The position numbers were made by a program, and so were the translations under genes. From Pseudaquabacterium rugosum (GTDB lineage: Bacteria; Pseudomonadota; Gammaproteobacteria; Burkholderiales; Burkholderiaceae_C), in contig NZ_JBBUTF010000010.1 in the NCBI RefSeq assembly GCF_038066575.1, forward strand, positions 12,435-44,434: a stretch of 32,000 bases of DNA, in the 5' to 3' direction. This document shows positions 2,899 to 18,746 of the stretch, piece after piece (within the stretch, counting starts at the first letter, position 1; each line of letters starts with the position of its first letter). The notes under the pieces were generated by a model. That model saw only the letters and a program-made list of their open reading frames with translations, searched no databases and was not told the origin of the DNA.

Positions 2899-3199
2899 GG
2901 CCGCGGGCGCCCCGCCGCATCATCAGGCGGATGACCGACCGGTCACCCTCATCCCCTCGGATCCAACGGCAGGCACGACCGCACGCGTCGGCCCTGCATC
3001 GGTGTCTGACCACCGAAACCAGGATCCTCTGCCGTGGGCGAGCCCATTCTTCGACGCCGGCCGAGCACGCGTCGAATCACTGTTGCTGAGGCGATGCCGC
3101 AGTCAGACTGCCAGGCACCAGCGCCGGGAGCCGGACGGCCCGACGATGTGCGGAGCGCACCAGGGCGGTGCAGCCGTCAAGCGGTGTGCCGGCAGGCGC

Positions 3200-3415
3200 T
3201 CAGACGCTGCCGGCCCAGGGCAGCAGCTCGTCGAGCGCATCGTCGGCCCGGTGCAGGCCGTCGAAGCTCATCAGCGCCCGCGCCGTGCGCAAGCCCTCCA
3301 GCAAGCGCGGCGGCGGCAGGAAGTAGAGGGTGGAAGCAGCGCCGTCCAGGCTGACGATGAAGCACATCAGCCGCCGGCTGGGCAGGAACTGCAGGCTGGG
3401 AGGGGGCGGGGGCAT
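3200..3415 (-). CDS. Hypothetical small protein (71 aa; may start at internal Met, MCFIVSLDG...)
   Basis: This is the only ORF in the 740-nt gap 2899-3637 with strongly G/C-biased third codon positions and a non-Arg-rich composition. I recognised no family. Confidence 0.3.
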   Translation of the reverse strand: MPPPPPSLQFLPSRRLMCFIVSLDGAASTLYFLPPPRLLEGLRTARALMSFDGLHRADDALDELLPWAGSV

Positions 3416-3529
3416 CCGGGGATGGTGGCGGAAGCCATCGGACAGCAGTCAGTGGAACTGGAGTCGATGTGGACGGCTTCTGGAGCGGCATCGCCGCGCC
3501 AACCCACGGCAGGCACTCACTGATCACAC

Positions 3530-3637
3530 AGTCATCGAGATGATCCGGGCACCAAGCATTTACGCGCTATTACAAGTCCACTGAACAAATTGCAAGACTC
3601 TGCGTAGAGACAGGCATCCCCCCCTACTGGATGCCCG
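3530..3637 (+). promoter_or_regulatory. Comparatively AT-rich leader / putative promoter region of the SEDS-PBP/FHA/PP2C/kinase/DGR-target operon
   Basis: Local drop in GC (ttacgcgctattacaagtccactgaacaaattgcaagactctgcgtagaga) directly upstream of ATG 3638, in an otherwise very GC-rich window. TTGCAA- and TTACAA-like -35 candidates are present, but no convincing -10 could be assigned by eye. Confidence 0.3.
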
Positions 3638-6600
3638 ATGCCGCCGACCTTCGCCCCCCCGGCTTCAGTCCACACTCAGCGTCTGGCCGCCCTGTCTCTG
3701 TGTCTGTGCGCTGCGCTGTGCGCCTTGTCCGTCCTTTGGCTGGACGACTGGGGACGACACGGCCCCAGTTTTGCCCGTGACTATGGCCGACAGCAGCAGA
3801 TCACGCTGGCCGTAGCGGCTGCACTCGGCCTGCTGCTGTGGCTGGCCCGCGACCCACTGACCTTGTTGTGCGTGCGTGGCTTGGCGCGCTGGTATGCCCT
3901 GCCTGCCGGGCGGCGCTGGGGCCTGGGGGCGCTGCTCAGCCTGGGCCTGGTGCTCGCCATCGGTGTTCTGCACTGGGCGCACAAGCTCCATGCCGTGCCG
4001 GGCTTGCCCGCCTCGGCCAGGCCGCCCTTGCAGTGGTTGTCCCGTCAGCTGGTGTCTACCGGCTTGTTACCTGTGCGCCCTGCGGTCACGGTGGAGTTGC
4101 TGCGCTTGCCTGCCTGCACCCTGGTGGCTTGGGCCCTGTACCGCTGGCAGCACGCGCAACTGTCCCTGGGCCGCAACCTGCTGCTGGCCGCTGTGGTGCT
4201 GCTGGTCATGGCGCTCGGCCTGTGGGCCAGCGACGACAAGGGGCCACTGCTGGTCATTGCCCTGGCGCTGGTGCTGCTGGGTGCGGCTTGCGTCACCCGG
4301 TTGCTGCCGCCGGTGCTGCAAAGCCCCGGCGCACGCTGGGTCGCTGCCAGCCTGGCCGCTACGGCCGGCATCGCTGCGCTGCTTGGCCTTCTGCCCCTCC
4401 TGACGCCGGCTGGCCGCATGCAGGCTTGGCACACCCCCTACTCGGCCCGGCAGGAGTACCTGGCGCAGATCACCTGGTTCCTGCAGGCTGCGGCGCACGG
4501 GCACTTTGGCCTGGGCGCGACACCCTGGTGCGGCCATGCCGGCACGCTGATCGGCCGCTGCCTCGGCCTGCCTACCGAGACCCAGAGCGACTACACCCCC
4601 GCCGCGCTCGGCCTGTGGGGCCCGGTGGCCGCCTGGGCCATCACCGCGGCCGTGGCCTGCTGGCTGTTGACCTTGATCCGCTTGGCGGCCTGGGGCACAG
4701 CGCCCCGCCATGGCGTCGACACCACCGGCCTGGCCGCTGCCACCGGGGGGCTCTATGCCCTGATGCTGCTGGCGCAGCTGTTCGTCACCGTGCTGGGCAA
4801 CCTGGGGCTGCTGCCGCTCACCGGCGTGCCCATGCCGCTGCTGTCCTGGGGGCGGGTGGCCATGGTCTGTACCGCGGTGGCCGTGGCGCTCGTCATGCCC
4901 CGGCCGGGTTCACGTTCGGCGATTGGCGGACAGTCGCCGCTGTGGCGAGCCGTTTCGGGCGTCGCCACCACGGCCTGCGTGATGGCGCTGGTGGCCGTGG
5001 CCTACGGCCTGTACCAGCGCCTGCACGATCCGGCGCCGCAGCGCCTGGCCAGCGGGCGCACCAACCCCTGGGCGCCGTTGCCCGGCTGCGTGCGTTCCGC
5101 CGACGGCACCCCTTTGCAGGGCCTGCCCGGTGTGCCGGCCGTGACGCAGGCGGTGTGCCTGCCCGCATCGACCGGCCCCACCCCGGTGCAAGCCCCCGCC
5201 AGTGCCCCCCTGCTGGCCCCGGCTGATGACGCCCTGCGGCTGGCGCTGCAGCAGTCTGCCGACCTCGCGCCCTTGGTGCAGCAGCGCCAGCACGCCGGCC
5301 TGCGCCTGCCGCAGCGCGGTGATGTCACCACCACCTTGCACGCCCCGTTGCAGGCGCGTGCCGATCAACTGGTGGCCTGCCTCACCGGCCAGGCCAGCCC
5401 GGCCTGCCAGGCGCTGGTGCCGGCCACGCTGGCTGCGCGCTATGCCCAGCGGCTGGAAGGCGCCGCCGTGCGGTCCGTCAGCCTGGTGACGCTGCGCCAG
5501 CGCGATGGTGCCCTGCTGGCCACGGCCCACGGCCGCAGCCTCTGCTCGGCCGCCCAGATGGCCAACACCCCACGGCCCGACGGCTGTGCCCCCGAGGCCC
5601 AGCGCCGCCTGGCCCGCCCCGGCCGGCTGTCCCAGCAGGCCCTGCGTGCCGACGACATGGTGGCCTCCACCCTCAAGCTGCTGTTGGCCGATGCGCTGCT
5701 GAACATGCCCGGCGGCGAACGCTGGCTGAGCGGCGCCCCGAAGGCGCAGCTGCTGGCCGCCCTGGCCGCGTCCGACACACCCTTTTTCATCGACCATCTG
5801 CTGTGCTTTGCACCTGGCGGCCAGCCGGCCCACTGCGCCGGCCCCGCCACGCTGGCCCGCCGTGTGGCCGAGCTGCAACTGGCCCAGGGTGCCGACCTGC
5901 TGCCCGCCAGCCCCGGTGAGCCTGAGGCGCCCCACCTGCGCCTTGCCGGCTTGCCGCTGACCTTGCCCGCCTGGCCCCCTGCCGGCGCCAGTGCCGCCCG
6001 CGAGCTGGCTGCCGCCCAGCGCTGCCACGCCCTGCCGCACGACCAGCGCTGGCGCGGCTGCAGCGGCGAGCAACTGGCGGCCCTGGTGGCACCGCTGTGG
6101 GGACAGGGCACGGCCCGCAGCCACCCGCTGGCCGTGGCCCAGCTCTACCAGCGCCTGGCCGCAGCGGCACGCGGCGAGGCCCGCTACGTGCCGCCCCACC
6201 TGCTGGCCGGCACGGCCACGGCCGCCAGCACCTCCCAGCCCACCGGCTTCAAGCCTGCCCACGCGGCACTCATCCTGGAAGGCCTGCAGCGTGTGCCCCT
6301 GGTGGGCACCGGCCGCGGCGCCTGTATCAGCGTCTTCGGCCCCCACGGCTGCCAGGACATGGGCCTGGCCATGAAGACCGGCACCAGCCTGTTTCCCCAG
6401 GCCGGCTGGACGGTGGCCGAGCGTGCTGCCCGCTGCCGCGCCGTGTTCGACCACCAGGACCAGCGGCGCGCCGCCTCGCAGCCCCTGCCCGCCGCTGCGG
6501 CCAGGGACAGCCTGCAATGCGCCCTCTACCCCATGAAGTGGGCGGTGCTGCTGGAGCCGGCCCGGCCGGGCGGCGAGGCCCTGGTCACCGTGGTGCTGGT

Positions 6601-6730
6601 GGAGCGCAACTGGTCCGCCAGCACCGGCCACCTCGATGCCGGCAACGACCGCGCCCCCAACGCCGCCATGGAGGCCGCGCTGCTGTTGCGCGCTGGCGAG
6701 GCGGTGCGCGCCCCTGCTGTGCGGCCTTGA
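3638..6730 (+). CDS. Fusion protein: N-terminal SEDS-family (FtsW/RodA) polytopic membrane glycosyltransferase plus C-terminal penicillin-binding transpeptidase-like domain
   Basis: 1030 aa. The N-terminal ~440 aa contain about 10 hydrophobic segments and SEDS signature stretches: DKGPLLVIALALVLLG, PTETQSDYTPAALG (cf. the TDFIFA motif) and LGNLGLLPLTGVPMPLLSWGRVAM (cf. G-lP-TG-plPf-SYGGS). The C-terminal part carries an SxxK motif (S677-T-L-K680, nt 5666-5677) and K913-T-G-T-S (nt 6374-6388), the acyl-serine transferase motifs 1 and 3. No clear SxN motif was seen. Confidence 0.7.
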   Translation: MPPTFAPPASVHTQRLAALSLCLCAALCALSVLWLDDWGRHGPSFARDYGRQQQITLAVAAALGLLLWLARDPLTLLCVRGLARWYALPAGRRWGLGALLSLGLVLAIGVLHWAHKLHAVPGLPASARPPLQWLSRQLVSTGLLPVRPAVTVELLRLPACTLVAWALYRWQHAQLSLGRNLLLAAVVLLVMALGLWASDDKGPLLVIALALVLLGAACVTRLLPPVLQSPGARWVAASLAATAGIAALLGLLPLLTPAGRMQAWHTPYSARQEYLAQITWFLQAAAHGHFGLGATPWCGHAGTLIGRCLGLPTETQSDYTPAALGLWGPVAAWAITAAVACWLLTLIRLAAWGTAPRHGVDTTGLAAATGGLYALMLLAQLFVTVLGNLGLLPLTGVPMPLLSWGRVAMVCTAVAVALVMPRPGSRSAIGGQSPLWRAVSGVATTACVMALVAVAYGLYQRLHDPAPQRLASGRTNPWAPLPGCVRSADGTPLQGLPGVPAVTQAVCLPASTGPTPVQAPASAPLLAPADDALRLALQQSADLAPLVQQRQHAGLRLPQRGDVTTTLHAPLQARADQLVACLTGQASPACQALVPATLAARYAQRLEGAAVRSVSLVTLRQRDGALLATAHGRSLCSAAQMANTPRPDGCAPEAQRRLARPGRLSQQALRADDMVASTLKLLLADALLNMPGGERWLSGAPKAQLLAALAASDTPFFIDHLLCFAPGGQPAHCAGPATLARRVAELQLAQGADLLPASPGEPEAPHLRLAGLPLTLPAWPPAGASAARELAAAQRCHALPHDQRWRGCSGEQLAALVAPLWGQGTARSHPLAVAQLYQRLAAAARGEARYVPPHLLAGTATAASTSQPTGFKPAHAALILEGLQRVPLVGTGRGACISVFGPHGCQDMGLAMKTGTSLFPQAGWTVAERAARCRAVFDHQDQRRAASQPLPAAAARDSLQCALYPMKWAVLLEPARPGGEALVTVVLVERNWSASTGHLDAGNDRAPNAAMEAALLLRAGEAVRAPAVRP

Positions 6731-6732
6731 CC

Positions 6733-6760
6733 GCCGGGGCCTGAACAAAAAAGGCCCGGC
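6733..6760 (+). promoter_or_regulatory. Intercistronic GC-rich hairpin with A-rich loop
   Basis: gccggggcc (6733-6741) pairs with ggcccggc (6753-6760), giving 8 bp with one bulged G, around the loop tgaacaaaaaa. It starts 3 nt after the SEDS-PBP stop. No T-run follows on either strand, so it is not a canonical intrinsic terminator. Confidence 0.35.
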
Positions 6761-6798
6761 CTGCGTAGGAACAGAAGAGGCAACCCCAGGACACCCCG

Positions 6799-8277
6799 AT
6801 GCACCCGCCACCCCACCTCGACAACGCCACCACCCGCCACCCACTGCCGGCCAACCCCACCCGCTGGCCCGCGCTGCACCTGGCGGTGCTGCAGGTCTGG
6901 CACGAGCACACCTCCCGGCGCGCCGGCCTGCAGCGCGCCGCCACGGCAGAGCTGCGGCTGGGGCCCGCCTGGGCCGACATCGCCCGGGCCAGCCCTGACC
7001 CGCAACGCCTGGCCCGGCGCCTGGCCGCCGACGGCGCCGACGTGCAGGTGCTGGTCATCCCCGACCTGCAGCAGCCTGAGCTGCACATCGGCTGGGCACC
7101 CTGGCATGCCCCGCCGCGGTCCCTCAGCCCCAGCCCCAACGCCGCACACCCCACCGCCACGGCAGACACGGCCACCACCGGCCTCCACGCCACCCCGCCC
7201 CGCCACCCTCACCACCCCGATCCGAGCACCCCCACCATGAAACTGCCCAACCTGCGCCAGCTCTTCACCCCCGAGCCCACCGCCACCGCGGCCCCCTTGC
7301 CCGAGCCCCGGCTGGAGCCCAGCGGCCAGCGAGCCGCACCCAGCGCCGCCCAGCAACTGACCCAGGCCCTGCAGCAGATCGCCGAGCAGATCGACGAGCA
7401 GGAACTGCGCATGCTGCTGGACACCGTGGACTGCCGCTACCAGCTGTGGGAGCTGACGCTGTACCTCACCCCCGGCAACCAGGCCCCGCTGCGCGGGCTG
7501 ATGGCCGCGCACCAGCAGAACCCGGCCATCGCGCGCCAGATCGTCGAGCGCGCCTTTGCCGGCACGCCCTGCGCCGGCCGCCTCAACACGCTGCGGCTGA
7601 AGCTGGACTTCAAGCGCGGCGACAGCCTGCCCCGCGAGGCCAGCGAGGTGCTGGTCGTCTGCGGCCGCGACAACGTCAGCCTGCCCTACACCTACACCGG
7701 TCAGCTGGAACTGGGCCAGGCAGCCCCCGCCCCGTCGGCCGCTCCCCCCCTCTCTGCCACGGGCACGGGCACGGCCAGCCCTGCCCCCCTCACCGCCGGC
7801 CCGCAAGGCACGCCCGAGCTGCTGCTGTGGGGCCAGGTGCCCGGCGCGGCCGGCACGCCCGCCGTACGGCGCTGGCGCCTGTCCAACGGCCCGGCCACCG
7901 TGGGCGCGGCCGACGAGGCCACCGTTCAGGCCAACCACCGGCACGTCAGCGGCGAACACCTGGTCTTGGCACTGGACGAGCAGGGCCAATGGACGGTGGA
8001 AGACCGCAGCCGCAACGGCAGTGCCCTGCTCGATGCCCTGGCCGGCGATGCCGAAAAGCCCTTGCCCTCGCGGCAGCCCCAGCGCCTGCCCGCCGCCGGC
8101 TGGCTGCGGCTGGGCCCGCTGCCCGACGACCCGGTGCTGAACTTCCACCTCGTGCTCTCGCCGGCTGCTGCGGCACCGGCTACCGCCGGCGGCAGCCGCC
8201 GCCGCGTCACCCAGTTGGCCGTTGCCGGCCACACCACCGCGCTGCCGCCCCTGGGCCGCGCCACGGACCTGACATGA
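6799..8277 (+). CDS. FHA-domain protein (FhaA-like architecture: N-terminal domain, Pro/Ala/Thr-rich linker, C-terminal FHA)
   Basis: 492 aa. The C-terminal FHA core is ATVGAADEATVQANHRHVSGEHLVLALDEQGQWTVEDRSRNGSALL (nt ~7890-8030), which contains the conserved G-R/A...S-x-x-H...N-G pattern. An alternative start is ATG 7237 (MKLPNLRQ). The stop overlaps the next gene start (ATGA at 8274-8277). Confidence 0.75.
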   Translation: MHPPPHLDNATTRHPLPANPTRWPALHLAVLQVWHEHTSRRAGLQRAATAELRLGPAWADIARASPDPQRLARRLAADGADVQVLVIPDLQQPELHIGWAPWHAPPRSLSPSPNAAHPTATADTATTGLHATPPRHPHHPDPSTPTMKLPNLRQLFTPEPTATAAPLPEPRLEPSGQRAAPSAAQQLTQALQQIAEQIDEQELRMLLDTVDCRYQLWELTLYLTPGNQAPLRGLMAAHQQNPAIARQIVERAFAGTPCAGRLNTLRLKLDFKRGDSLPREASEVLVVCGRDNVSLPYTYTGQLELGQAAPAPSAAPPLSATGTGTASPAPLTAGPQGTPELLLWGQVPGAAGTPAVRRWRLSNGPATVGAADEATVQANHRHVSGEHLVLALDEQGQWTVEDRSRNGSALLDALAGDAEKPLPSRQPQRLPAAGWLRLGPLPDDPVLNFHLVLSPAAAAPATAGGSRRRVTQLAVAGHTTALPPLGRATDLT

Positions 8278-9188
8278 GCTGGGCCGCACATCTGCTGGGC
8301 CTGTGGCGCGCCTGGTTCCGCCGCGGCCTGCGCAACGCCCCCCAGCCCCTGCCGGAGCCGGGCGGCGGCCAGGCCATGGCCCGGGGTGGCCCGTGGGCCG
8401 TGGCCTGGGCCAGCCACGCCGGCCCCCACCACCTCAACCAGGACTGCGCCGGCGCGTGCTGGCGCACGCTGCCTGACGGCACCGGCCTGGCCGCTGCCGT
8501 GGCCGACGGGGTCACCAACGGCGCGGCAGGCGATGTGGCGGCCCTGGCCCTGGTGCAGCACTGGCTGCAGGGGCCGCGGCCGCCGCAGCGTCAGCGCAGC
8601 TTCCTGGGCAATGCCGATGCTGCTGTGGCCAAGGCGCTGCGCAAACTCACCCAAGAGCCTGGCGCCGCCACCGGCGCGGCCTGCTGGCTGCAGCCCGACG
8701 GCAGCGGCTGGGCCACCCGCGTGGGCGACTGCCGGCTGCTGCGCGTGGTGCCGCCGCCCGCACAGGACGTCCCCCTGCTGCCCCCCGGCTGGTCCGTGCA
8801 ACCACTGCTGCACGACCAGACCTACGCCCACCTGCGCCGCAGCACTGGCGCCACACAGCCGCTGCTGGACGACGATGAGGACGCCCTGCAACCCGCCCAC
8901 ATGGTGGGCATTGGCTGCCTGGGCGAGCCCGAGTGGGTGCCGCTGGCGCTGGCCGAAGGCGATCTGCTGCTGCTGGCCTCCGATGGTCTGCACGCTGTCC
9001 TGTCGGATGCCGACTGGCACACCGTGCTGGCCCGGCACCTGGGCAGCGCCAACCCGGCGGCGGCTGCCCTGCCGGCGCTGCTGCACCATCTGATACAAAC
9101 CGCCATCGAGCGCGGCAGCGAGGACGACATCACCGTTCTGGCAATCCTGCGCCAGTCAGAACAGTACCGGGAGGAAGTTGAGCCGTGA
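8274..9188 (+). CDS. PP2C-family (PPM) Ser/Thr protein phosphatase
   Basis: Internal ATG of track ORF 7446-9188, overlapping the FHA gene stop by 4 nt. PPM motifs are AAVADGVTNGAAGDVAA, ATRVGDCRLL, LLLASDGLHAVLSD and GSEDDITVLAI. Confidence 0.8.
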   Translation: MSWAAHLLGLWRAWFRRGLRNAPQPLPEPGGGQAMARGGPWAVAWASHAGPHHLNQDCAGACWRTLPDGTGLAAAVADGVTNGAAGDVAALALVQHWLQGPRPPQRQRSFLGNADAAVAKALRKLTQEPGAATGAACWLQPDGSGWATRVGDCRLLRVVPPPAQDVPLLPPGWSVQPLLHDQTYAHLRRSTGATQPLLDDDEDALQPAHMVGIGCLGEPEWVPLALAEGDLLLLASDGLHAVLSDADWHTVLARHLGSANPAAAALPALLHHLIQTAIERGSEDDITVLAILRQSEQYREEVEP

Positions 9189-11338
9189 CCCGCCGCCGCA
9201 CATCCGTGATCGGAGGCGTGCATTCGCCTGCCAATCGTTCGCCCGCCCCCGCGGCCCTGCGCCAGTGGGCCCTGCTGGCCGTGCGCGAGCTGGTGCTCAG
9301 CCAGAGCCTGGACGCCGCCGAGGAGGCCCGCGCCTGGGAGGACACGGCCCGGCGCTGGCGCATCGCCAACGGGGACGAGGAGGGCAACCCCGCCCCCAGC
9401 GCTGACCGCAGCAAGGTCAAGCGCGAGCCGCCGCACAAAGGCGAGGTCTGGTGGCGCAAGGTCTACGAGCCCGAGTACGACGCCCTGCAGGTCAACGAGA
9501 CCGATGTGCTGAAGAAGCTGGCCGACATGGACCCTCAAGGACTGGCCGGCCTGCGCAACCACGTGGCCCATTTCGAGCAGAGCACCAAGGCAACGCGGCT
9601 GGCCTACCGCGCCGTGCGCACCAAGGACGCCGGCCCCAACCTGGACATGTGGCAAGTCTTTGCGCCCTGCACCAGCGTGGGCAACGCCGGGCTGCCGCTG
9701 CCACTGTTCGCCCAGCCGCGCTTTCTGGCGGCGCTCACCCGCCAGGCGCTGATCGCGCTGGACAAGCTCAGCCAGCTCGGCTTCGTGCACGTCGACGTCA
9801 AGCCCGGCAACCTGTGCCTGGCCTTTCCGCCAGGCAGCCACTGGCGCGCCGACCGCGACATCGCCCGTGGCCATTGGGACCTGCGGGCCTTGCCGTTGCG
9901 CCTGATCGACTTCGAACTTGGCTTTGCCCCCGGCGTCAACCGCCTTCCCCACGAAGGCGACAACGACAACTGGTCCCCCTACCTGCAGGCCTGCTTCCGC
10001 GAGGCGAAGAAAGAGCCGCAAGTGCGCATGCGCCTGCGGCGGCTGGACGGCATCGACTGGGGCACCGACCTGTGGGCCCTGGGCCACACGCTGCTGGTCT
10101 GGTGCAGCGAAGCGCAGAACTTCCTGCGTCAATTCAGCAACGCCATCGCCCTCCACTGGGGCGTGGATGGCCCGGCCCACCGCAGTGCGCAGGACACGGT
10201 CGGCCCCATGCAGACCGAGCTGGCCTTTCTGCGCAGCTTCGCCAAGGACCTGCAGGCCTGCGAACGCCCGCCCGCGGATGCGCAAGACGCCGACCCGACG
10301 GCGCGGGCGAACCCGCCCCACCGTAGCCTGTGGTCCCAGCTGGAAACCCGGTTCAAGCTCGGCCCCGGTGACAGTGCCAGCCGCGTCGAATTCCAGCTCA
10401 TCATCCCCACCCGCCCCCTCGCCGTCGCCGAAGGCAGCCGCTGGACCGACCTGGCCGCCCTGCGTGCCCGCACCGCCGCAGGCGCGGCCACGGCCTGGGC
10501 CCGCCGCCAGGGCCGGCCGCTGCAGGCCGCCGCCCGCACCACCACCGCCTGGGGCGCGCGCCACCACCGCCGCCTGCTGGCGGCCACGGCCGCCGGTGCG
10601 CTGGCCGTGGCCGCCGTGCAGGGCCGCGGCGCCCTGGCCGTGGCGCTGGCACCCACGGTGGGCCAGCTGGCCCGCGCCAGCCTGGCCGCCCAGGTGCGGG
10701 CCGACAGCCCCGTGCAGGCCACGCTGGCCCCCGCGCTGCTGCGCCTGGCCGGCGTGCTGGACGACGCTCTGCCTACCCGCGCCATCACTGCCGAGCTGGG
10801 TGCCACGCCGCAGCTGCCGCCCCGCGCCGCCGGCGCTGCGGCCGAGGCCGATGCTGCCACCCTTGCGGCGGTGCGCGAGGCCAACCTGCGCGCCCTGGCC
10901 CTGCTGGCCGATGCGCCCGATGCCGCCCTGCAGGCGCCCGAAGACGGCCGGGCGGACGGCCCGCCGCTGGGCCACCGCCTGCTGCGGCAGGCCTTGGAAA
11001 GTGGCCGGCAGTTGGAGGAACAGGCCGGCCGCGGCCACCCCCCCGCCCGCGGCCAACCCCCCGCCGCACCGGACGCCCGTGCCGCCGCCCTGGCCCGCCT
11101 GCACCAGCGCACCGCCTGGCCCATGGCGGAACTGCTGCAGGTGCACCTGAGCAGCTGCTACGGCGCGCCCCAGGGCCGCCAGCCCGACGCGCTGCGCCCG
11201 GCCCTGGCCAGCCTGCTGGCGCTGGACCGCAAGCAGGCGGTCAACCGCGAGTTCTACATCCCCTCGGCAGAGGTCTATGCCCAGCGCCTGGAGGCTGGCC
11301 AGGACCCCTGCTACCTGCCCGCCGCCACCCCGGGCTGA
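9185..11338 (+). CDS. Atypical Ser/Thr protein-kinase-like protein with long Ala-rich C-terminal region
   Basis: GTG start 9185 overlaps the PP2C stop (GTGA). Kinase-fold landmarks are a beta3 Lys candidate (VWWRKVYEP), an alphaC Glu (NETDVLKKL), the catalytic loop H202-V-D-V-K-P-G-N209 (nt 9788-9811) and D242-F-E in place of DFG (nt 9908-9916). There is no GxGxxG loop, and an extra ~20 aa lies between the catalytic loop and DFE. Residues ~380-717 are Ala/Arg/Pro-rich with a possible hydrophobic segment (LLAATAAGALAVAAV). Confidence 0.65.
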   Translation: MTRRRTSVIGGVHSPANRSPAPAALRQWALLAVRELVLSQSLDAAEEARAWEDTARRWRIANGDEEGNPAPSADRSKVKREPPHKGEVWWRKVYEPEYDALQVNETDVLKKLADMDPQGLAGLRNHVAHFEQSTKATRLAYRAVRTKDAGPNLDMWQVFAPCTSVGNAGLPLPLFAQPRFLAALTRQALIALDKLSQLGFVHVDVKPGNLCLAFPPGSHWRADRDIARGHWDLRALPLRLIDFELGFAPGVNRLPHEGDNDNWSPYLQACFREAKKEPQVRMRLRRLDGIDWGTDLWALGHTLLVWCSEAQNFLRQFSNAIALHWGVDGPAHRSAQDTVGPMQTELAFLRSFAKDLQACERPPADAQDADPTARANPPHRSLWSQLETRFKLGPGDSASRVEFQLIIPTRPLAVAEGSRWTDLAALRARTAAGAATAWARRQGRPLQAAARTTTAWGARHHRRLLAATAAGALAVAAVQGRGALAVALAPTVGQLARASLAAQVRADSPVQATLAPALLRLAGVLDDALPTRAITAELGATPQLPPRAAGAAAEADAATLAAVREANLRALALLADAPDAALQAPEDGRADGPPLGHRLLRQALESGRQLEEQAGRGHPPARGQPPAAPDARAAALARLHQRTAWPMAELLQVHLSSCYGAPQGRQPDALRPALASLLALDRKQAVNREFYIPSAEVYAQRLEAGQDPCYLPAATPG

Positions 11339-11377
11339 CGCCCCACCGCCTGCCCACCCCCGCACCGGAGTCCCCCC

Positions 11378-12877
11378 ATGCCGCCCCGGCCTGTTGCCCC
11401 CCCTTCCCACCCGGCGCCGCTGCCTGCCCGCCCTGCCGCCCTGACCCTGGCCTTGCTGCTGGCCCTGGCGGCCTGGCCCGGGCTGCCTGCCCGCGCACAG
11501 GCCATCAGCGCCCCGCCCCTGGGCTACCCCACGCCGGCCGAGCTGGCCGAGGCCCGGAAGGAAGCCGCCCAGCTGCGCGAGGCCCTGGGCCGCGAACAAG
11601 CCAAGGCCAAGGCCGCCCAGCAGGCCGCCGATGCCGCCAACGCCCGCGCCACCCAGGCCGAGCGCGCCGCCGCTGCGGCCGAAGTCCAGTCCGGCAAGGC
11701 CAACCCCGAGCAACTGGCCGCCCTGCGCCTGGAGCGCGACGCAGCCCGGGCCGAGGCCGCCAGCCTGCGCACCGAGCTGGCCCAGGCCAACGAGGCCGTC
11801 AAGCGCCTGAAGGCTGCGGCGAGCGATGCCGGCGCCAGCACCGCCGAGCTGACCCGGCTGCGCCGCCAGAGCCAGGAGCAACAGGACACCATCACCACCC
11901 TGCGCACCCAGCTGGCAGCCGAGAAAAAGGCCACGGCCAGCGCCAACGCCGCGGCATCGGCTGCTGCTGCCAGTGCCGCGGCGGCAGCCGCCGCCACCCG
12001 CCAGCCCCCAGCCCCGGTGGCCAGAACCACGGCCCCGCAGCCCGCACCATCCACCACCACGACCACCGCCCCCCTGCCGCCCGACCTGAGCGACATCACC
12101 GTACCCGGCTGCGGCGCGGCCTGCCCCACCTTCGTGCTCATCCCCAACCCCGGCCCGGTGACGCTGGGCACGGGCAGCGATGCGCTGCGCATCGACTTCA
12201 AGCACCGCTACGCCATGGCCAGCACCGAAACCACGGTCGGCCAGTGGAAGGCCTTCATCAACGACAGCGGCTACCGGCCGGAGAAAGCCAGCGACACCTA
12301 CTGCAACTGGGACGACAAGGCCTATTCCAGCGACGACAAGCTGCCCGTGGCCTGCGTCAACGTCACCGATGCCGAGGCCTACGCCGCCTGGTTTGCCCGC
12401 AAGTACGCCGGCCAGATGCGGGCCCAGGGCCAGGCCAACGGTGCGCCGTTGCGCATCGACAGCATCGGGCTACCCAGCGAGTTGGAGTGGGAGTTTGCCG
12501 CTCGTGGCGGGCGTTACACCGAAAAGTACCTGTGGGACGACGGCGCCAGCGATGCGGAGACCTGCCGGCATGGGCAGAACTACAAATGCCACGGCGGGGC
12601 CAAGCCCGTCGGCGAGCGGCTGAAGAACGGCTACCGCCTCCACGACATGATCGGCAACGTCTGGGAATGGACGGCCTCGCCCTGGCGTGACCAACGCAGT
12701 GCGCTGCCGCTGCATGGCCGCGAGGCGCCCGCCGGGGTGTCCGGCCCGCGCTCTGTGCGCGGGGCCTCTTTCGTCAACTTCGACGTCAGGCTCGCCCTGT
12801 CCTACCGCCTCTGGTACACCCCCGGCGACCGCTACAGCTACATCGGTTTCCGTTTGGTCGCCCGGATCGCGCCATGA
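11378..12877 (+). CDS. DGR variable (target) protein: signal peptide, coiled-coil stalk, Ala/Thr/Pro linker and FGE-sulfatase/C-type-lectin-fold domain with C-terminal VR
   Basis: 499 aa. It has a Sec signal (LTLALLLALAAWPGLPARAQA/IS), and residues ~50-190 are heptad-like and charged/Ala-rich (coiled coil). FGE-sulfatase family motifs are ETTVGQWKAFI, PVACVNVTDAEAYAAWF, LPSELEWEFAARGG, GNVWEWT and VRGASF...IGFRLVAR. The last ~45 codons match the TR downstream of the RT. Confidence 0.9.
   Translation: MPPRPVAPPSHPAPLPARPAALTLALLLALAAWPGLPARAQAISAPPLGYPTPAELAEARKEAAQLREALGREQAKAKAAQQAADAANARATQAERAAAAAEVQSGKANPEQLAALRLERDAARAEAASLRTELAQANEAVKRLKAAASDAGASTAELTRLRRQSQEQQDTITTLRTQLAAEKKATASANAAASAAAASAAAAAAATRQPPAPVARTTAPQPAPSTTTTTAPLPPDLSDITVPGCGAACPTFVLIPNPGPVTLGTGSDALRIDFKHRYAMASTETTVGQWKAFINDSGYRPEKASDTYCNWDDKAYSSDDKLPVACVNVTDAEAYAAWFARKYAGQMRAQGQANGAPLRIDSIGLPSELEWEFAARGGRYTEKYLWDDGASDAETCRHGQNYKCHGGAKPVGERLKNGYRLHDMIGNVWEWTASPWRDQRSALPLHGREAPAGVSGPRSVRGASFVNFDVRLALSYRLWYTPGDRYSYIGFRLVARIAP
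12731..12868 (+). repeat. DGR variable repeat (VR)
   Basis: This 138-nt segment aligns without gaps to 14682-14819 (offset 1951). All 14 internal substitutions in codons 12773-12841 lie opposite TR adenines. There is one boundary A/G difference and one non-A difference (12754 T vs 14705 G). The 3' 23 nt (12842-12864) are identical to the TR, after which the sequences diverge (IMH-like end). Confidence 0.9.
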
Positions 12878-12887
12878 CCATGGCGCG
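12868..12887 (+). promoter_or_regulatory. GC-rich hairpin/cruciform at the VR 3' boundary (candidate DGR target-recognition element)
   Basis: cgcgccat (12868-12875) pairs perfectly with atggcgcg (12880-12887) around the 4-nt loop gacc. The element spans the target stop codon (12875-12877). No equivalent palindrome follows the TR. Confidence 0.6.
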
Positions 12888-13091
12888 TGACCCCTTGATG
12901 CCTTTACCCCCTTACGCCAAACGTCAGTGCACCGCACACACGCGGATGCGCCGCAGGCCGGTGTCGGGGGTGCGGGGGCGGCAGCCCCCGCCGCGCGACG
13001 CCGCGCGCGCGCGCACGGCGGCCGGTCCAGCACCAGCGGCGTCGCCGATGGCGCGGGGCTTCCCACGGTCCATCGCCGGCGCGCAGATCCA

Positions 13092-13508
13092 ATGACCATG
13101 CATCCACCCGTCCCACCATCGTCCACCTCCAACCGGGTGCCGACGCCCGCAGACCCGCCAGGGGCCCGCGGCGGACAGGCCTTGGAACGGACCGTGCTCT
13201 ACATCACCTGGCTGGTGCCGGTGCTGGAGCAGTTCCCGCGCAGCCAGCGTTTCCTGCTGGGCGACCGTCTGCAAAGCCTGGCGCTGGACCTGATGGACGT
13301 GCTGGTGGAGGCCCAGTACCGCAAGTCCCCTCGCGCCGAGTTGCAGCGCGCCAATCTGCTGCTGGAAAAGCAGCGCCTGTTGTGGCGGGTGGCCTACAAC
13401 CTGCGTCTGGCCGACGTGCGCCGCTACGAGCATGCGGCCCGCGAGATCGACGACATCGGCCGCCGCCTGGGCGCCTGGCTCAAGCGGCTGGGACCGAGCA
13501 CTGCATGA
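13092..13508 (+). CDS. avd: Avd-like accessory variability determinant (four-helix-bundle, 23S rRNA IVS protein family)
   Basis: 138 aa from ATG 13092 of track ORF 12927-13508. It has the characteristic LYITWLVPVLEQFPRSQRFLLGDRLQSLALDLMDVLVEAQY helix pair and a basic C-terminal helix (IDDIGRRLGAWLKRL). The stop overlaps the RT start (ATGA 13505-13508). Confidence 0.8.
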   Translation: MTMHPPVPPSSTSNRVPTPADPPGARGGQALERTVLYITWLVPVLEQFPRSQRFLLGDRLQSLALDLMDVLVEAQYRKSPRAELQRANLLLEKQRLLWRVAYNLRLADVRRYEHAAREIDDIGRRLGAWLKRLGPSTA

Positions 13509-14611
13509 GACGCCGCCCCGCCGCCGACCTGTTCGACCAGGTGGCCAGCTTCCCCGCGCTGCTCGCCGCCACCCGACGCGCGGCCCAGGGCAAGCGCGAA
13601 CGCCCCGATGCCGCGGCCTTTCTGTTCCGCCTGGAACCGAACCTGCTGCGCCTGAGTGATGCGCTCTACAGCGGCCAGTGGCAGCCTGGCGGCTACCGCA
13701 AGGTGATGGTGCGCGAGCCCAAGACACGCCACATTTCCATCGCCCCCTTCGCAGACCGCGTGGTCCACCAGGCTCTGCACGGCGTACTGGGCCCCCTCAC
13801 GCAGCGCAGCTTCATCAGCGATAGCTTCGCCAGCCTGCCTGGGCGCGGGCAGCACCGGGCCATCGCCCGCTATGAACAGTTCCGCGACACACACCCCTGG
13901 GTGCTGCGCTGTGACATCCACCGCTTCTTCCCTTCCATCGACCATGCCGTGGCCAAGCACGAGGTGCGCCGCTGGGTGGCCTGCCCACGCACCCTGGCCG
14001 TGGTGGACGCGATCATCGACGGCAGCAATCCTCAAGAGCCGGTGAATGCCTACTTTCCGGGCGACGACCTGTTCACCCCCTGGGAGCGACGCCGTGGCTT
14101 GCCGCTGGGCAACCTGACCAGCCAGTGGCTGGCCAATCTCGTGCTGAACCCGCTGGACCATTGGGTCAAGGAGGTGCTGCGCCTGCCTGGCTATCTGCGT
14201 TACCTGGACGACTTCGCGCTGTTCTGCCACAGCGCGGACGAGGCCCTGGACCTGCAACGTCAGGTCCAGGGCTTTCTGGACCGACGGCGCCTGCGGCTGC
14301 ACCCCATCAAGACGCAGGCCCTGTGCACCTGCCATCCAGCGACGTTTCTGGGCCTGGAACTGTGGCCGGATCGCCACCGGCGCCTGCCGCAGGCCAATGT
14401 GTCCCGGGCTGCCGAACGGGTACGCCGGGCCCGGCTGGACTGGACGCGAGGCCTGCGGGACGAAGCCGAGGTGCGTCGTACCGTGGCGGCTTGGGTGGCG
14501 CATGCCCGTCATGCCGACACCTTCTTGCTGCGACGGCGCTGGTTCAGTGCAGGCTGGTTCGACCCGGAAGGCGAAACTCGTCGAGCGCGCACCAGGCCAC
14601 GGCCACGCTGA
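13505..14611 (+). CDS. DGR-type reverse transcriptase
   Basis: 368 aa from ATG 13505 of track ORF 13382-14611. RT motifs are KTRHISIAPFADRVVHQAL and LPLGNLTSQWLANLVLNPLDH (the SQ-containing motif typical of DGR RTs), plus catalytic YLRYLDDFALF (YxDD). There is no endonuclease, maturase or RNase H extension. Confidence 0.9.
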   Translation: MRRRPAADLFDQVASFPALLAATRRAAQGKRERPDAAAFLFRLEPNLLRLSDALYSGQWQPGGYRKVMVREPKTRHISIAPFADRVVHQALHGVLGPLTQRSFISDSFASLPGRGQHRAIARYEQFRDTHPWVLRCDIHRFFPSIDHAVAKHEVRRWVACPRTLAVVDAIIDGSNPQEPVNAYFPGDDLFTPWERRRGLPLGNLTSQWLANLVLNPLDHWVKEVLRLPGYLRYLDDFALFCHSADEALDLQRQVQGFLDRRRLRLHPIKTQALCTCHPATFLGLELWPDRHRRLPQANVSRAAERVRRARLDWTRGLRDEAEVRRTVAAWVAHARHADTFLLRRRWFSAGWFDPEGETRRARTRPRPR

Positions 14612-14681
14612 CAACTGCCGCTAGACTGCTTCGCGCCATCAGCCGCAACCGCGACGCGATGGTGCCCGCCCGACCTTCCAG

Positions 14682-14819
14682 ACCGGGGTGTCCGGCCCGC
14701 GCTCGGTGCGCGGGGCCTCTTTCAACAACAACGACGACAGGCTCGCCCTGTCCAACCGCAACAGGAACACCCCCGGCAACCGCAACAACAACATCGGTTT
14801 CCGTTTGGTCGCCCGCATC
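14682..14819 (+). repeat. DGR template repeat (TR)
   Basis: This invariant-copy candidate lies 70 nt downstream of the RT stop. It is adenine-rich for this genome (28 A in 138 nt). In the VR reading frame it contains 10 AAC, 2 GAC and 2 AGG codons. See the VR entry for the alignment. Confidence 0.9.
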
Positions 14820-14928
14820 CCCCACCCGGCCGGAGCAGCGCAGCCCAAGGGCTGTGCTGGCGTGCCGTGCGGGGTATCCAGGTCGGTGCCGGCATGCTTC
14901 GGGGCCTGCCGCCTTGGTCTTCGGTCTT

Positions 14929-14961
14929 GCGGCCGTTGGCGGCGGTGGGGCCCGCTTTTTT
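14929..14961 (+). terminator. Candidate intrinsic terminator / 3' end of the avd-RT-TR transcript
   Basis: An imperfect stem gcggcc (14929-14934) / ggcccgc (14949-14955), with one bulge and a 14-nt loop, is followed by the only T6 run in this part of the window (14956-14961). The stem is weak. Confidence 0.3.
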
Positions 14962-15017
14962 CATGGTCAGCACCAAACGCCAGACCGCACGCCTTCACAC
15001 CACCCACTGGATCCGCC

Positions 15018-15908
15018 ATGAAGTCGAACACCCGTTCCGTCCTTCGCCCCTCAGCACCTCGCCAGCGCTGGCTGGAACTTGATGGGCTGGCCCAGCAGTA
15101 CCTGGCCCTGCCCGTGGAGGACAGCGTCGAGCGCGAGGCGCTGCGCCTGCGCATCCTGCGCTTGCTGGCGGCCGGCTGGGTCAGCTTCACGGCCGACGGC
15201 ACATCCACGCGAGAAGACGATGTGCTGTCGCGTACCTTTCGCGAACAGGCAGCGGCCCTGAGTCGTCGCCATGCCAATCACAGCCTGGAGCACATCTACG
15301 GCGGCTTGGACAACCTGGGTGACGAGGCCAAGGCCGAGTTCCTGGCACGCCGTGCCAGCAAGGCCGGCCACGCCGGCCAGACGCTGCTGACCGGCCTGCT
15401 CAGCCAGTGGAACCCGGCCAAGAGCGACTTGCGCGGCTTCATGCAGGCGGTGGTGCGCAACTTCCTGCTGGACCTGCACCGCAAGGCATACAAGCGGGAA
15501 GACGGCCTGAACGGCGCGCCGCCGGGCGCCACGCCACGGGGCTTCCTGACCGACGGGCGAGCACCGGGCGACGAGGGCGACGCCGACGGCAGCACCGGCC
15601 ACGACGACTGGCTGGAGGCCGTGACCCATGCCCACGGCGTGGACGGTTCCCCCCACAGCGCCGAGGACGAGGCCGCGCAGACGGAGGAACTGTTCCAGGC
15701 TCTGGAGGCCGCCCGCGACGCCCTGCCCCCGCAGCAGCGCAGCACGTACGACAGTGAAATCGAGCGCCACAGCGGCCCGAGGACGACCGACGCGGCACAG
15801 GCGGCTGCCGCGGGCATCAGCCGCAACACGCTGTACAAGCGCCGGGCAGAACTGGCGGCGGCCTTGAACAAGCTGATGCACAACACGGCGACGGCACCCA
15901 AGAGCTGA
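15018..15908 (+). CDS. Divergent sigma-70 family (ECF-like) RNA polymerase sigma factor candidate
   Basis: 296 aa from the first ATG downstream of the TR in track ORF 14688-15908. It has a region-2-like stretch LRGFMQAVVRNFLLDLHRKAYKRE and a region-4-like HTH at the C-terminus (LPPQQRSTYD...TTDAAQAAAAGISRNTLYKRRAELAAALNKL), separated by an acidic insert. The assignment comes from motif pattern only. Confidence 0.5.
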   Translation: MKSNTRSVLRPSAPRQRWLELDGLAQQYLALPVEDSVEREALRLRILRLLAAGWVSFTADGTSTREDDVLSRTFREQAAALSRRHANHSLEHIYGGLDNLGDEAKAEFLARRASKAGHAGQTLLTGLLSQWNPAKSDLRGFMQAVVRNFLLDLHRKAYKREDGLNGAPPGATPRGFLTDGRAPGDEGDADGSTGHDDWLEAVTHAHGVDGSPHSAEDEAAQTEELFQALEAARDALPPQQRSTYDSEIERHSGPRTTDAAQAAAAGISRNTLYKRRAELAAALNKLMHNTATAPKS

Positions 15909-17910: not shown

Positions 17911-18543
17911 TCAGGCCCGCAACGCGCGGCGGCGGGCCGCGCCACCCACCACGCCCAGGCCGAGGGCCAGCAGCGCAGCCGATGCCGGCTCGGGCACGGC
18001 GGCGGCGGTGGTCGTCCACGCCCAGTCCGCGGTGCTGTTATGGATGTCGTAGGTGGTCGGCAGCGGCGTGCCGCCGACCCACAGGAAGGTGTAGCCGGAC
18101 CAGCGCCAGCCCGTCGCGTTGCCGCTGAGCACGCCCAGCCCCGGCGCACCGAGGCCGCCCACCGGATCGCCCCAGATGAGCTTGAAGTCGTCGAGGCCGG
18201 CCAGCGAGGCCGTGGTGCTGTGGAAGTAGGACTTCTCGCCGTTCAAGGGCACCTGATCGGACAGCCTGACGAAGCTGTTCGGGCCGGTGTAGCTGAAGTC
18301 GAAGGCCGCGCTGGCGACGGCTTCGTAGCCGCCCGTGTCGGCCACGTCCCACGTCAGGTCGCTGAAGGTCAGCGTGGCCGTGACGGAAGCCGGGGCCGTG
18401 CCATCGGCCGCGCCGATGCAGCGGGCATTGATGCAGGTGCCGGTGAAGGTGAGCACCGTGTCGTCGGCCCAGGCCGGTGCCTGCAGGCCGGCAGCGGCCA
18501 CCAGCACCCCAAGCACACGGCGGACATACCGCTGGTCGTTCAT
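17911..18543 (-). CDS. PEP-CTERM sorting-domain secreted protein
   Basis: Internal ATG 18543 is preceded by GGAGAG. It has a signal peptide (RRVLGVLVAAAGLQAPAWA) and a C-terminal VPEPASAALLALGLGVVGGAARRR motif, i.e. the PEP motif, a TM helix and a basic tail. Confidence 0.8.
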   Translation of the reverse strand: MNDQRYVRRVLGVLVAAAGLQAPAWADDTVLTFTGTCINARCIGAADGTAPASVTATLTFSDLTWDVADTGGYEAVASAAFDFSYTGPNSFVRLSDQVPLNGEKSYFHSTTASLAGLDDFKLIWGDPVGGLGAPGLGVLSGNATGWRWSGYTFLWVGGTPLPTTYDIHNSTADWAWTTTAAAVPEPASAALLALGLGVVGGAARRRALRA

Positions 18544-18746
18544 GATCTCTCCCTGTTGCTCTCTGGTCAGCCAAAGATCATAAGGAGCCGGACTTCGCCG
18601 CAAGCCCGGCCGTTACGCGCGGTCACCAATGGCGCGGGCGCCTCCTCCAACGGGGTGATGAACGACGTGACGGCGGGACCCTCAGGCCGTCCGGCAGCGC
18701 GGTTCGTGCGACCGCGTGCGGCGCATCCAGAAACGGACGCAGCGCC

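Follow-up and report, generated by a model that had tools for sequence, protein, structure and literature searches.

A diversity-generating retroelement target within a conserved synthase, FHA, phosphatase and kinase gene set of Pseudaquabacterium rugosum and related Burkholderiales

Several described systems contain parts of the gene set considered here. In the H1 type VI secretion system (T6SS) of Pseudomonas aeruginosa, periplasmic TagR activates the membrane kinase PpkA, which in turn phosphorylates Fha1, a step reversed by the PP2C phosphatase PppA (PMC10482370); TagR has been assigned to COG1262 in a review table (PMC13584744). Cyanobacterial targets of diversity-generating retroelements (DGRs) that begin with a Ser/Thr kinase and end in a CLec domain have been reported (PMC7517822, Vallota-Eastman et al. 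2020), and DGRs have been linked to conflict systems (PMC7159879, PMC10907252). Chimeric proteins of a SEDS domain and a class B penicillin-binding protein (bPBP), known as 'bifunctional class B' synthases, are encoded in some cases beside Ser/Thr kinase and phosphatase genes (PMC12516126), and extracytoplasmic function (ECF) sigma factors activated by adjacent Ser/Thr kinases are represented by PknT-EcfP of Vibrio parahaemolyticus and PknS-EcfK of Xanthomonas citri (ECF43; PMC8999054, PMC13147305). The present analysis concerns a window, i.e. the whole stretch of 32,000 nt analysed, from Pseudaquabacterium rugosum (Betaproteobacteria, Burkholderiales, Sphaerotilaceae; assembly GCF_038066575.1, contig NZ_JBBUTF010000010.1, positions 12,435-44,434 of the forward strand) with a G+C content of ∼73%, and all coordinates given without a locus number are window positions. 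In this window, the target of a DGR (gene E) follows four genes for a predicted SEDS-bPBP fusion (A), an FHA protein (B), a PP2C-family phosphatase (C) and a Hanks-type kinase (D), and is itself followed by the DGR and by a gene for a sigma-70-like protein (H). Full-text literature searches returned no DGR linked to a SEDS, FtsW, RodA or PBP gene, or to such an FHA/PP2C set, and the module is not described in the DGR surveys consulted. A preliminary description of this DNA had stated that it knew of no described module linking a DGR to a dedicated SEDS/bPBP pair; the searches agree with it, but kinase-flanked SEDS-bPBP chimeras and kinase-lectin DGR targets are known, and as each of the building blocks is known, only their combination is new. 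A pair of promoter-like motifs (P_A and P_B) and a hairpin in the leader of A are newly found.

The set of an FGE-family protein, a transmembrane Hanks kinase, an FHA protein and a PP2C phosphatase is common to the T6SS pathway and the present module, COG1262 being the FGE/SUMF1 family, and the named, weak matches of B include the T6SS FHA protein TagH along with FhaB/FipA. However, the outputs here are a SEDS-bPBP fusion and a sigma-like protein, the module is devoid of TagQ/S/T equivalents, and its FGE-fold protein has a coiled-coil stalk and is diversified by a DGR; T6SS genes were found neither in the window nor in any of the 27 loci compared. The preliminary description had likened the genes to the actinobacterial fhaA-fhaB-pstP-rodA-pbpA-pknA-pknB cluster. 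This likeness stands for gene content, as the actinobacterial/Firmicute wall-kinase clusters share the co-located SEDS, class B PBP, FHA, PP2C and Hanks kinase genes, and B resembles actinobacterial FhaA in the C-terminal position of its FHA domain, though the N-terminal domain of FhaA was not detected in B. It fails for gene order and for the kinase: the synthase gene leads the set and encodes SEDS and bPBP as one protein, a single kinase takes the place of two, and D shows no PASTA match, its predicted extracytoplasmic part being all-alpha. Furthermore, the host is betaproteobacterial, the set also includes a lectin, a DGR and a sigma-like gene, and the protein families are extremely divergent, with absent or marginal Pfam matches. 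On this sequence evidence, the module is an analogue in content of the PknB-type wall cluster and not a member of it.

The fused layout of the cyanobacterial kinase-CLec targets recurs among relatives of the module (L014, P0019 and P0021), whereas in the window the kinase and the lectin are separate, the lectin is predicted to be exported, and both lie within a conserved synthase/FHA/PP2C/sigma set. No such set is described in PMC7517822, where FHA and peptidoglycan are unmentioned, and phosphatase and cell wall appear once each in passing. The SEDS-bPBP chimeras of PMC12516126 differ in coming from Actinomycetota and Bacteroidota and in having recognisable Pfam transpeptidase domains, and none of them is linked to a DGR, lectin or sigma-like gene. 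As in ECF43, a sigma-like gene lies beside that of a Hanks kinase, with no anti-sigma gene and with ECF-type promoters (GAAC at -35, CGT at -10); in contrast to ECF43, H lies far outside the curated ECF models, has an N-terminal extension of ∼120 aa and lacks a promoter motif of its own.

Homologues of D and A are confined to Burkholderiales metagenome-assembled genomes (MAGs) and metagenomes labelled Ideonella, Rubrivivax or 'Betaproteobacteria', and many of their record names indicate glacier-fed-stream samples. The family is rare, as evident from five true loci among 185,579 species when genome contigs were scanned with the D profile, and a single short locus when JGI metagenome contigs were scanned with the A profile; no kinase (D) homologue was found in the plasmid collection, and the co-occurrence statistics rest on ∼12 lineages. 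In these lineages, the order A-B-C-D-E is kept wherever the contig suffices, the proteins being 31-65% identical and the genes closely spaced or overlapping, and the flanks differ (amine oxidase in the window; NIPSNAP, an RND efflux pump, an ABC transporter or Big_2/MazE genes elsewhere). The gene-neighbourhood comparison proposed earlier, therefore, rules out that the adjacency of lectin, SEDS-PBP, FHA, PP2C and kinase genes is peculiar to this strain. Random insertion of a DGR beside an unrelated cluster was also considered and was rejected, E being adjacent to the kinase gene in all lineages reaching that far and fused to it in some. In L014, P0019 and P0021 the lectin domain directly follows the kinase domain (residues 1-413) in one polypeptide, and these fusions are Rosetta-stone evidence that the kinase and the lectin would work together.

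A more distant six-gene module, found in a Casimicrobiaceae MAG and two metagenome contigs and not described in the literature searched, encodes SEDS (794 aa), bPBP-like (877-902 aa), small (∼120 aa; 119 aa), FHA, PP2C and kinase-like (∼900-1080 aa) proteins. Its bPBP-like protein displays 27% identity to the C-terminal half of A and retains SxxK and KTGT; in its kinase-like protein, read by eye, there is a long stretch of low complexity, and the C-terminus resembles helical repeats. Since these distant relatives carry the set without lectin, DGR and H, the linkage of synthase, FHA, PP2C and kinase genes appears to be older than the lectin and the DGR, and lectin, H and DGR would define a Sphaerotilaceae-type clade.

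The gene identities given in the preliminary description (SEDS-PBP, FHA, PP2C, kinase and variable lectin) are all borne out by domain, profile and fold evidence. Among the profile searches which it had proposed, those for FTSW_RODA_SPOVE, FHA, PP2C, FGE-sulfatase, RVT_1 and Avd gave matches, but Transpeptidase and Pkinase remained unmatched in Pfam. The SEDS half of A matches Pfam FTSW_RODA_SPOVE marginally (27.7 bits against a cut-off of 26.4; aa 373-420) and TIGR ftsW with 41 bits over aa 152-420, far under the equivalog cut-off, and a profile built from 21 A homologues matches FtsW/RodA in the PDB (E 6e-5). In the HMMER alignment, D318 of A is aligned with the catalytic D275 of P. aeruginosa FtsW in extracellular loop 4. 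The hydropathy profile displays ∼10 hydrophobic helices and an eleventh at 438-456, which is the pattern expected if a SEDS protein continues into the membrane anchor of a class B PBP. The AlphaFold2 (AF2) model of A has a mean predicted local distance difference test (pLDDT) score of 84, and the best 50 of its 142 Foldseek matches in the PDB (E <= 0.001) are all class B PBPs, including PBP3/FtsI, PBP2 and SpoVD, with E values of 1e-6 to 4e-5 over ∼500-600 columns; TIGR pbp2_mrdA gives a weak match (E 0.01, NCBIfam). The residues D318, S677-T-L-K680, S712 and K913-T-G-T are invariant in the 21 homologues, as are fourteen cysteines, which would fit a periplasmic location. The model and the alignments indicate that A is a peptidoglycan synthase fusion with its catalytic residues kept, in which a SEDS glycosyltransferase is joined by the eleventh helix to a bPBP of pedestal and transpeptidase fold, the PBP half of this assignment resting on the fold search and the motifs. 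The NCBI version of A (WP_341374554.1, P. rugosum, 100% identity) is 29 aa shorter than the open reading frame (ORF) starting at the ATG at 3638.

B matches Pfam FHA with 23.7 bits (cut-off 20.7), and the FHA residues G369, S384, H387 and N406-G407 are invariant. C matches PP2C_2 (26 bits, cut-off 24), SpoIIE (30 bits, cut-off 25) and Stp1/IreP (43 bits), and the metal-binding motifs LNQD, ADG, LASDG and EDDIT are present when the sequence is read by eye. D has no Pfam match, that to Pkinase included; its family profile matches eukaryotic-type kinases in the PDB (SLK, STK10, PAK; E 3e-4), and its AF2 model (pLDDT 81.5) gives 344 PDB matches in Foldseek (E <= 1e-3), the best 50 of which are all protein kinases. 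The catalytic lysine K92, the alphaC glutamate E105, the HxDxKxxN loop (H202-D204-K206-N209), D242 and the DxWxxG motif (IDWGxDLWALG) are invariant; DFG reads DFE, and a glycine-rich loop is absent. The kinase domain (aa ∼70-410, cytoplasmic) is followed by a basic stretch, a transmembrane segment (∼466-488) and an all-alpha domain (∼490-712), which is confidently modelled and contains conserved cysteines. As judged from the model, D is a divergent single-pass Hanks-type kinase with intact catalytic residues. The N-terminus MTRRRTSV is likewise invariant in 21 homologues, and its RRRTS is a candidate phospho-site. The NCBI version of D (WP_341374557.1, P. rugosum, 100% identity) has 706 aa, as it omits the first 11 codons counted from the GTG at 9185; given the invariance of this N-terminus, the longer reading frame, which includes the GTGA overlap, is very probably the right one.

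E matches FGE-sulfatase, a C-type-lectin fold, with 138.8 bits. A hydrophobic, signal-peptide-like N-terminus ending in AQA is followed by a coiled coil of ∼170 aa, a Pro/Thr-rich linker and the FGE domain, a layout common to six homologues; no lipobox, sorting signal or peptidoglycan-binding domain was found in E. The variable repeat (VR) in E and the template repeat (TR) form the only such pair in the window and are 88% identical over 137 nt, and 14 of their 16 mismatches fall on TR adenines, of which there are 27. The 3' end of the VR reads CGGATC against CGCATC in the TR, which we read as a difference of the IMH/IMH* type (initiation of mutagenic homing). The hairpin directly 3' of the VR (-10.5 kcal/mol as a DNA fold, z = -3.3) resembles the target-recognition hairpin of the BPP-1 DGR. 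The accessory variability determinant (Avd) matches NF033474 DivGenRetAVD with 89 bits (cut-off 80) and Pfam bAvd with 52 bits, and the reverse transcriptase (RT) matches RVT_1 with 69 bits and shows 31-36% identity to phage RTs, with Bordetella phages among the matching records. The complete DGR that the preliminary description had placed after E is, therefore, confirmed: adenine-biased TR/VR differences, an RT together with Avd and a VR at the C-terminus of an FGE-fold target are all found.

Where related loci have a DGR cassette, its place is always between E and H. Six lineages (the window and five others), whose D proteins are 38-52% identical, hold an intact and active-looking DGR with TR/VR differences specific to adenines, and the VRs differ at variable positions between lineages. 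Identity between lineages is higher for RT (60-80%) and Avd (73-88%) than for A-E, which suggests selection for DGR function. Toxin-antitoxin genes (HigB/HTH, ParE, HicA/HicB, MazE/PIN) are repeatedly present in or beside the DGR segment of relatives, between E and H; none is present there in the window. Some copies carry disruptions: in L019 the RT is truncated and the TR partly lost, the remainder being 99.9% identical to L018; a 2-nt indel (L016 18992) splits E in comparison with L017; L006 has split E and H genes; and D is split into 639 and 156 aa in L007. These are signs of decay or of assembly errors. L003 (12300-13200) and L005 encode the same D protein (P0012) and have identical VRs, and differ at ∼100 positions concentrated in the coiled coil, linker and first lectin half of E, which suggests recombination or fast evolution of the stalk independent of the DGR.

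The preliminary description had placed a sigma-factor-like gene after the TR, and the weak but consistent matches of H to TIGR02937, PDB profiles and Sigma70_r4 bear this out. H is specific to the module, and an exhaustive search of 1.84 billion proteins gave only 15 representatives related to it. In the PDB, the family profile matches best to sigma-4 of FliA, RpoE and RpoS (E 2e-4 to 2e-3), and its alignment to sigma-2 stays under the threshold; two of the 14 family members match Pfam Sigma70_r4 (best E 6.9e-6) and five match Sigma70_r4_2 (best E 4.9e-4). These matches indicate, weakly but consistently, a sigma-70-like protein with a sigma-4 helix-turn-helix and a sigma-2-like segment. In a manual alignment to E. 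coli RpoE, the stretch of H equivalent to sigma-2.2 reads QTLLTGLL and is not acidic and DAED-like, a further likeness to ECF43. H is present in all nine lineages (9/9) whose contigs reach past E, including those without a DGR.

A scan of both strands of the 32-kb window finds just two copies of the motif TGAAC-N16/17-CGTA, P_A and P_B (0.31 expected); AAC at -35 together with CGT at -10 is a hallmark of ECF-sigma promoters. The -10 element of P_A ends 31 nt before the start of A, and that of P_B 31 nt before the start of B. At the P_A position, the motif is found in 10 of 11 related loci with a relaxed pattern and in 7 of 11 with a strict one (window included), and a P_B-type motif is kept in the A-B gap of all 11 loci. 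The variants of the two sites co-vary per locus: TGACC is present at both in L018, TGAAT...CGGT at both in L006, and CGTCTGTCT at both the P_A-type and the P_B-type site of L014. This co-variation suggests that a locus-encoded factor reads P_A and P_B, with H as the obvious candidate. P_A-type motifs were not found upstream of avd or E, and a scan for consensus sigma-70 promoters found nothing.

Genes A-E lie on one strand, and rechecking of the ORF coordinates confirmed the junctions first described: gaps of 68 nt (A-B) and 39 nt (D-E), an ATGA overlap of B and C at 8274-8277 and a GTGA overlap of C and D at 9185-9188. Because the 68-nt A-B gap holds a second promoter-like motif, A-E probably form not one operon but a pair of co-regulated units of transcription (A; B-E). 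The earlier view of the lectin gene as the last gene of an operon would hold for B-E, a single operon being too simple in view of an internal promoter-like site before B. The leader hairpin of A (minimum free energy -11.6 kcal/mol, z = -2.4) is found ending 2 nt before the start of A in 8 of 10 loci (window, L003, L006, L007, L014, L016, L018 and L024), with z from -2.3 to -5.3 in those relatives. Its stems differ in sequence (GGCAUCC/GGAUGCC, GGUCAUC/GAUGACC, GGGUGUC/GACACC, GUACCU/AGGUAC), and in several loci a GGAG Shine-Dalgarno sequence lies inside the loop; translation of the synthase may be controlled by the hairpin.

These features can be read together as one conserved module, with A-E and H as its six core genes and the DGR in addition, working by one mechanism, to which we assign a probability of roughly 0.5. 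E would be a ligand-binding co-receptor of D, as periplasmic TagR is with PpkA, and ligand-bound E would switch D on through the periplasmic domain of the kinase. D would then phosphorylate Thr/Ser residues, the candidates being its own RRRTS, conserved C-terminal Thr residues of B, and H. The phospho-marks would be read by B or passed on by it to the synthase A, and C would return the system to rest by dephosphorylation. Once activated by phosphorylation, H would drive transcription of the module at P_A and P_B, following the pattern of PknT-EcfP and PknS-EcfK. In the end, a dedicated synthase would make peptidoglycan locally or under certain conditions, and the DGR would shift the recognition by E across the population, leaving the downstream wiring unchanged. 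The gene set and the kinase-lectin fusions lend partial support to the idea, put forward in the preliminary description, of an evolvable sensor driving phospho-Thr signalling to wall synthesis; the direction of signalling and its output, i.e. the effect on peptidoglycan synthesis, are what we infer, as are the substrates, the pairing of H with the promoters and the nature of the ligand.

Several observations weigh against this mechanism. On the sensing side, the likeness of E to TagR is one of family assignment, the fused kinase-lectin proteins are without a transmembrane segment or signal peptide so that their lectin would be cytoplasmic, and the transmembrane segment of D is of weak hydrophobicity, its model being poor. 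In the FHA domain of B, the canonical phospho-Thr-binding Arg after Gly is replaced by Ala (Lys in distant relatives). The middle PBP motif of A is S712-D-T714 instead of SxN, and its C-terminal 570 residues have no PBP match at the sequence level (Pfam, PDB profile, PDB phmmer). H scores only 18.7 bits (E 1e-3) against a TIGR02937 cut-off of 42.9, and no P_A-type motif was found upstream of its gene. Lastly, the DGR is dispensable in some lineages and not the fixed part of the module that the earlier account implied: L014 and L026 have none, L024 keeps only an avd fragment and L019 has a truncated RT. Moreover, no VR change was seen between near-identical contigs of different samples, their VRs being identical in consensus assemblies, which hide minority variants.

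Table 1. Features of the module in the P. rugosum window, and corresponding segments of related loci
Feature	Position	Strand	Description
P_A	3582-3606	+	ECF-type promoter-like motif TGAAC-N16-CGTA, upstream of A
Leader hairpin GGCAUCC...GGAUGCC	3613-3635	+	ends 2 nt before A start codon
A	3638-6730	+	predicted SEDS-class B PBP fusion, 1030 aa
P_B	6742-6767	+	ECF-type promoter-like motif TGAAC-N17-CGTA, in A-B gap
B	6799-8277	+	cytoplasmic protein, FHA domain C-terminal (aa ∼355-445), 492 aa
C	8274-9188	+	PP2C-family Ser/Thr phosphatase, 304 aa; start overlaps B stop
D	9185-11338	+	predicted divergent Hanks-type receptor kinase, 717 aa; GTG start overlaps C stop
E	11378-12877	+	DGR target, exported coiled-coil + FGE-fold lectin (predicted), 499 aa
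VR	12732-12868	+	last 48 codons of E
GC-rich hairpin 3' of VR	12868-12887	+	8-bp stem, 4-nt loop, spans E stop codon
avd	13092-13508	+	DGR accessory variability determinant
DGR reverse transcriptase	13505-14611	+	start overlaps avd stop (ATGA)
TR	14683-14819	+	downstream of RT; 10 AAC codons
Terminator-like stem + T-run	14941-14964	+	between TR and H; from a consensus scan, count in region not above shuffle expectation
H	15018-15908	+	sigma-70-family-like protein, 296 aa
Distant modules	L020/L021 10001-20953; L022 5351-13554		six genes
Toxin-antitoxin insertions	L016 21472-22139; L007 14092-15986; L006 15253-15707; L024 9270-9902; L026 10143-10529		

The surroundings of the module contain no integrase or tRNA gene flanking it, the neighbours being ordinary metabolic genes, and no tRNA or Rfam family was found in the window. 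The ∼650 nt upstream of P_A (2934-3581) have a lower G+C content (0.68) and are without a convincing ORF; an insertion or rearrangement that brought the module here may have left this segment behind. On the minus strand, 17911-18603 encodes a small protein with a PEP-CTERM sorting motif, which is a mark of exopolysaccharide- and biofilm-associated export, and 18747-20972 encodes a protein of 741 aa whose C-terminus weakly matches Nuc_deoxyrib_tr (Pfam E 4e-8) and the PADLOC TIR 'Effector' model (E 9e-6). Judged by these matches, the latter may belong to the defence-type genes; it lies ∼3 kb downstream of the module.

Other readings of the same genes have been weighed against the co-receptor mechanism. 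Adhesion or surface display is the usual role of bacterial DGR targets, and E may be an exported variable adhesin, the kinase, FHA, PP2C and sigma-like proteins only regulating its production and the synthase building or anchoring an envelope structure such as cell-cell junctions, sheath or holdfast in filamentous or biofilm-forming Sphaerotilaceae. The signal peptide, long coiled-coil stalk and terminal lectin head of E form an adhesin-like layout, E is the last gene of the B-E unit, many matches come from assemblies with glacier-fed-stream record names, and the host family, Sphaerotilaceae, includes sheathed and filamentous genera. Against these points, the fusion of the lectin to a kinase domain without an export signal (L014, P0019, P0021) speaks for a direct kinase-lectin partnership, and E lacks a lipobox, a sorting signal and a peptidoglycan-binding domain; this explanation is considered improbable. 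It is unlikely, too, that the module is a stress-inducible alternative elongasome or divisome under the kinase and the ECF-like sigma factor, a Gram-negative counterpart of the PknB/PstP/FhaA/RodA/PbpA cluster in which E is a fixed TagR-like activator and the DGR an unimportant hitchhiker. Such a reading would account for the persistence of A-E and H where the DGR is absent, remnant or truncated (L014, L024, L026, L019), for the distant relatives that hold synthase, FHA, PP2C and kinase without lectin or DGR, for the identical VRs of near-identical contigs from different samples, and for the occurrence of SEDS-bPBP chimeras beside kinase and phosphatase genes elsewhere without DGRs (PMC12516126). 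Against it stand DGRs kept whole, with adenine-specific TR/VR differences, in six lineages as divergent as their D proteins indicate, VRs that differ between these lineages at variable positions, and the conservation of RT and Avd above that of A-E.

A role in conflict or defence has also been considered, in which the lectin recognises molecules of an invader (phage or competitor proteins) and the kinase cascade deploys A, either as a containment device or, if A is enzymatically compromised, as a dominant-negative poison of wall synthesis acting by abortive infection. The module would then resemble the DGR-diversified conflict systems of multicellular bacteria, and DGR-diversified FGE/CLec sensors are indeed tied to conflict systems (PMC7159879, PMC10907252). 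The repeated insertion of toxin-antitoxin genes in the DGR segment of relatives, the varied genomic contexts of the module, the weak family scores and degenerate SxN motif of A and the TIR-like protein 3 kb downstream point in the same direction. Nevertheless, A, B, D and H have no match among the PADLOC defence models, the NTPase, caspase and TIR effector fusions that define the described systems are absent, the module is without a flanking integrase or tRNA and has ordinary metabolic neighbours, and the invariance of D318, S677, K680 and KTGT in A argues against an inactive decoy. A defensive function is, therefore, regarded as very unlikely.

If the co-receptor mechanism holds, its interest lies in the place of the variable protein. 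To our knowledge, the function of chromosomal DGR targets in free-living bacteria is largely unknown; here, a DGR target is found within a small, conserved and self-contained circuit, the other parts of which have a well-understood biochemistry, and as the circuit is present in a named species with an NCBI genome record, the downstream effect of sensor hypervariation becomes testable. The promoter pair and the leader hairpin provide immediate handles for reporter assays. For the cell-wall field, the mechanism, if true, would mean a Gram-negative accessory SEDS-bPBP pair under Ser/Thr-kinase control, and TagR-PpkA-type signalling would extend past type VI secretion. A bolder form of it, which we consider doubtful, is a programmable envelope surveillance in which the DGR-rewritten periplasmic lectin gates the kinase and newly recognised foreign molecules switch on the private synthase and the sigma factor. 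If true, this would amount to an anticipatory, adaptive-immunity-like control of cell-wall construction, for which structures of phages, predators, competitors or neighbouring cells would be the triggers.

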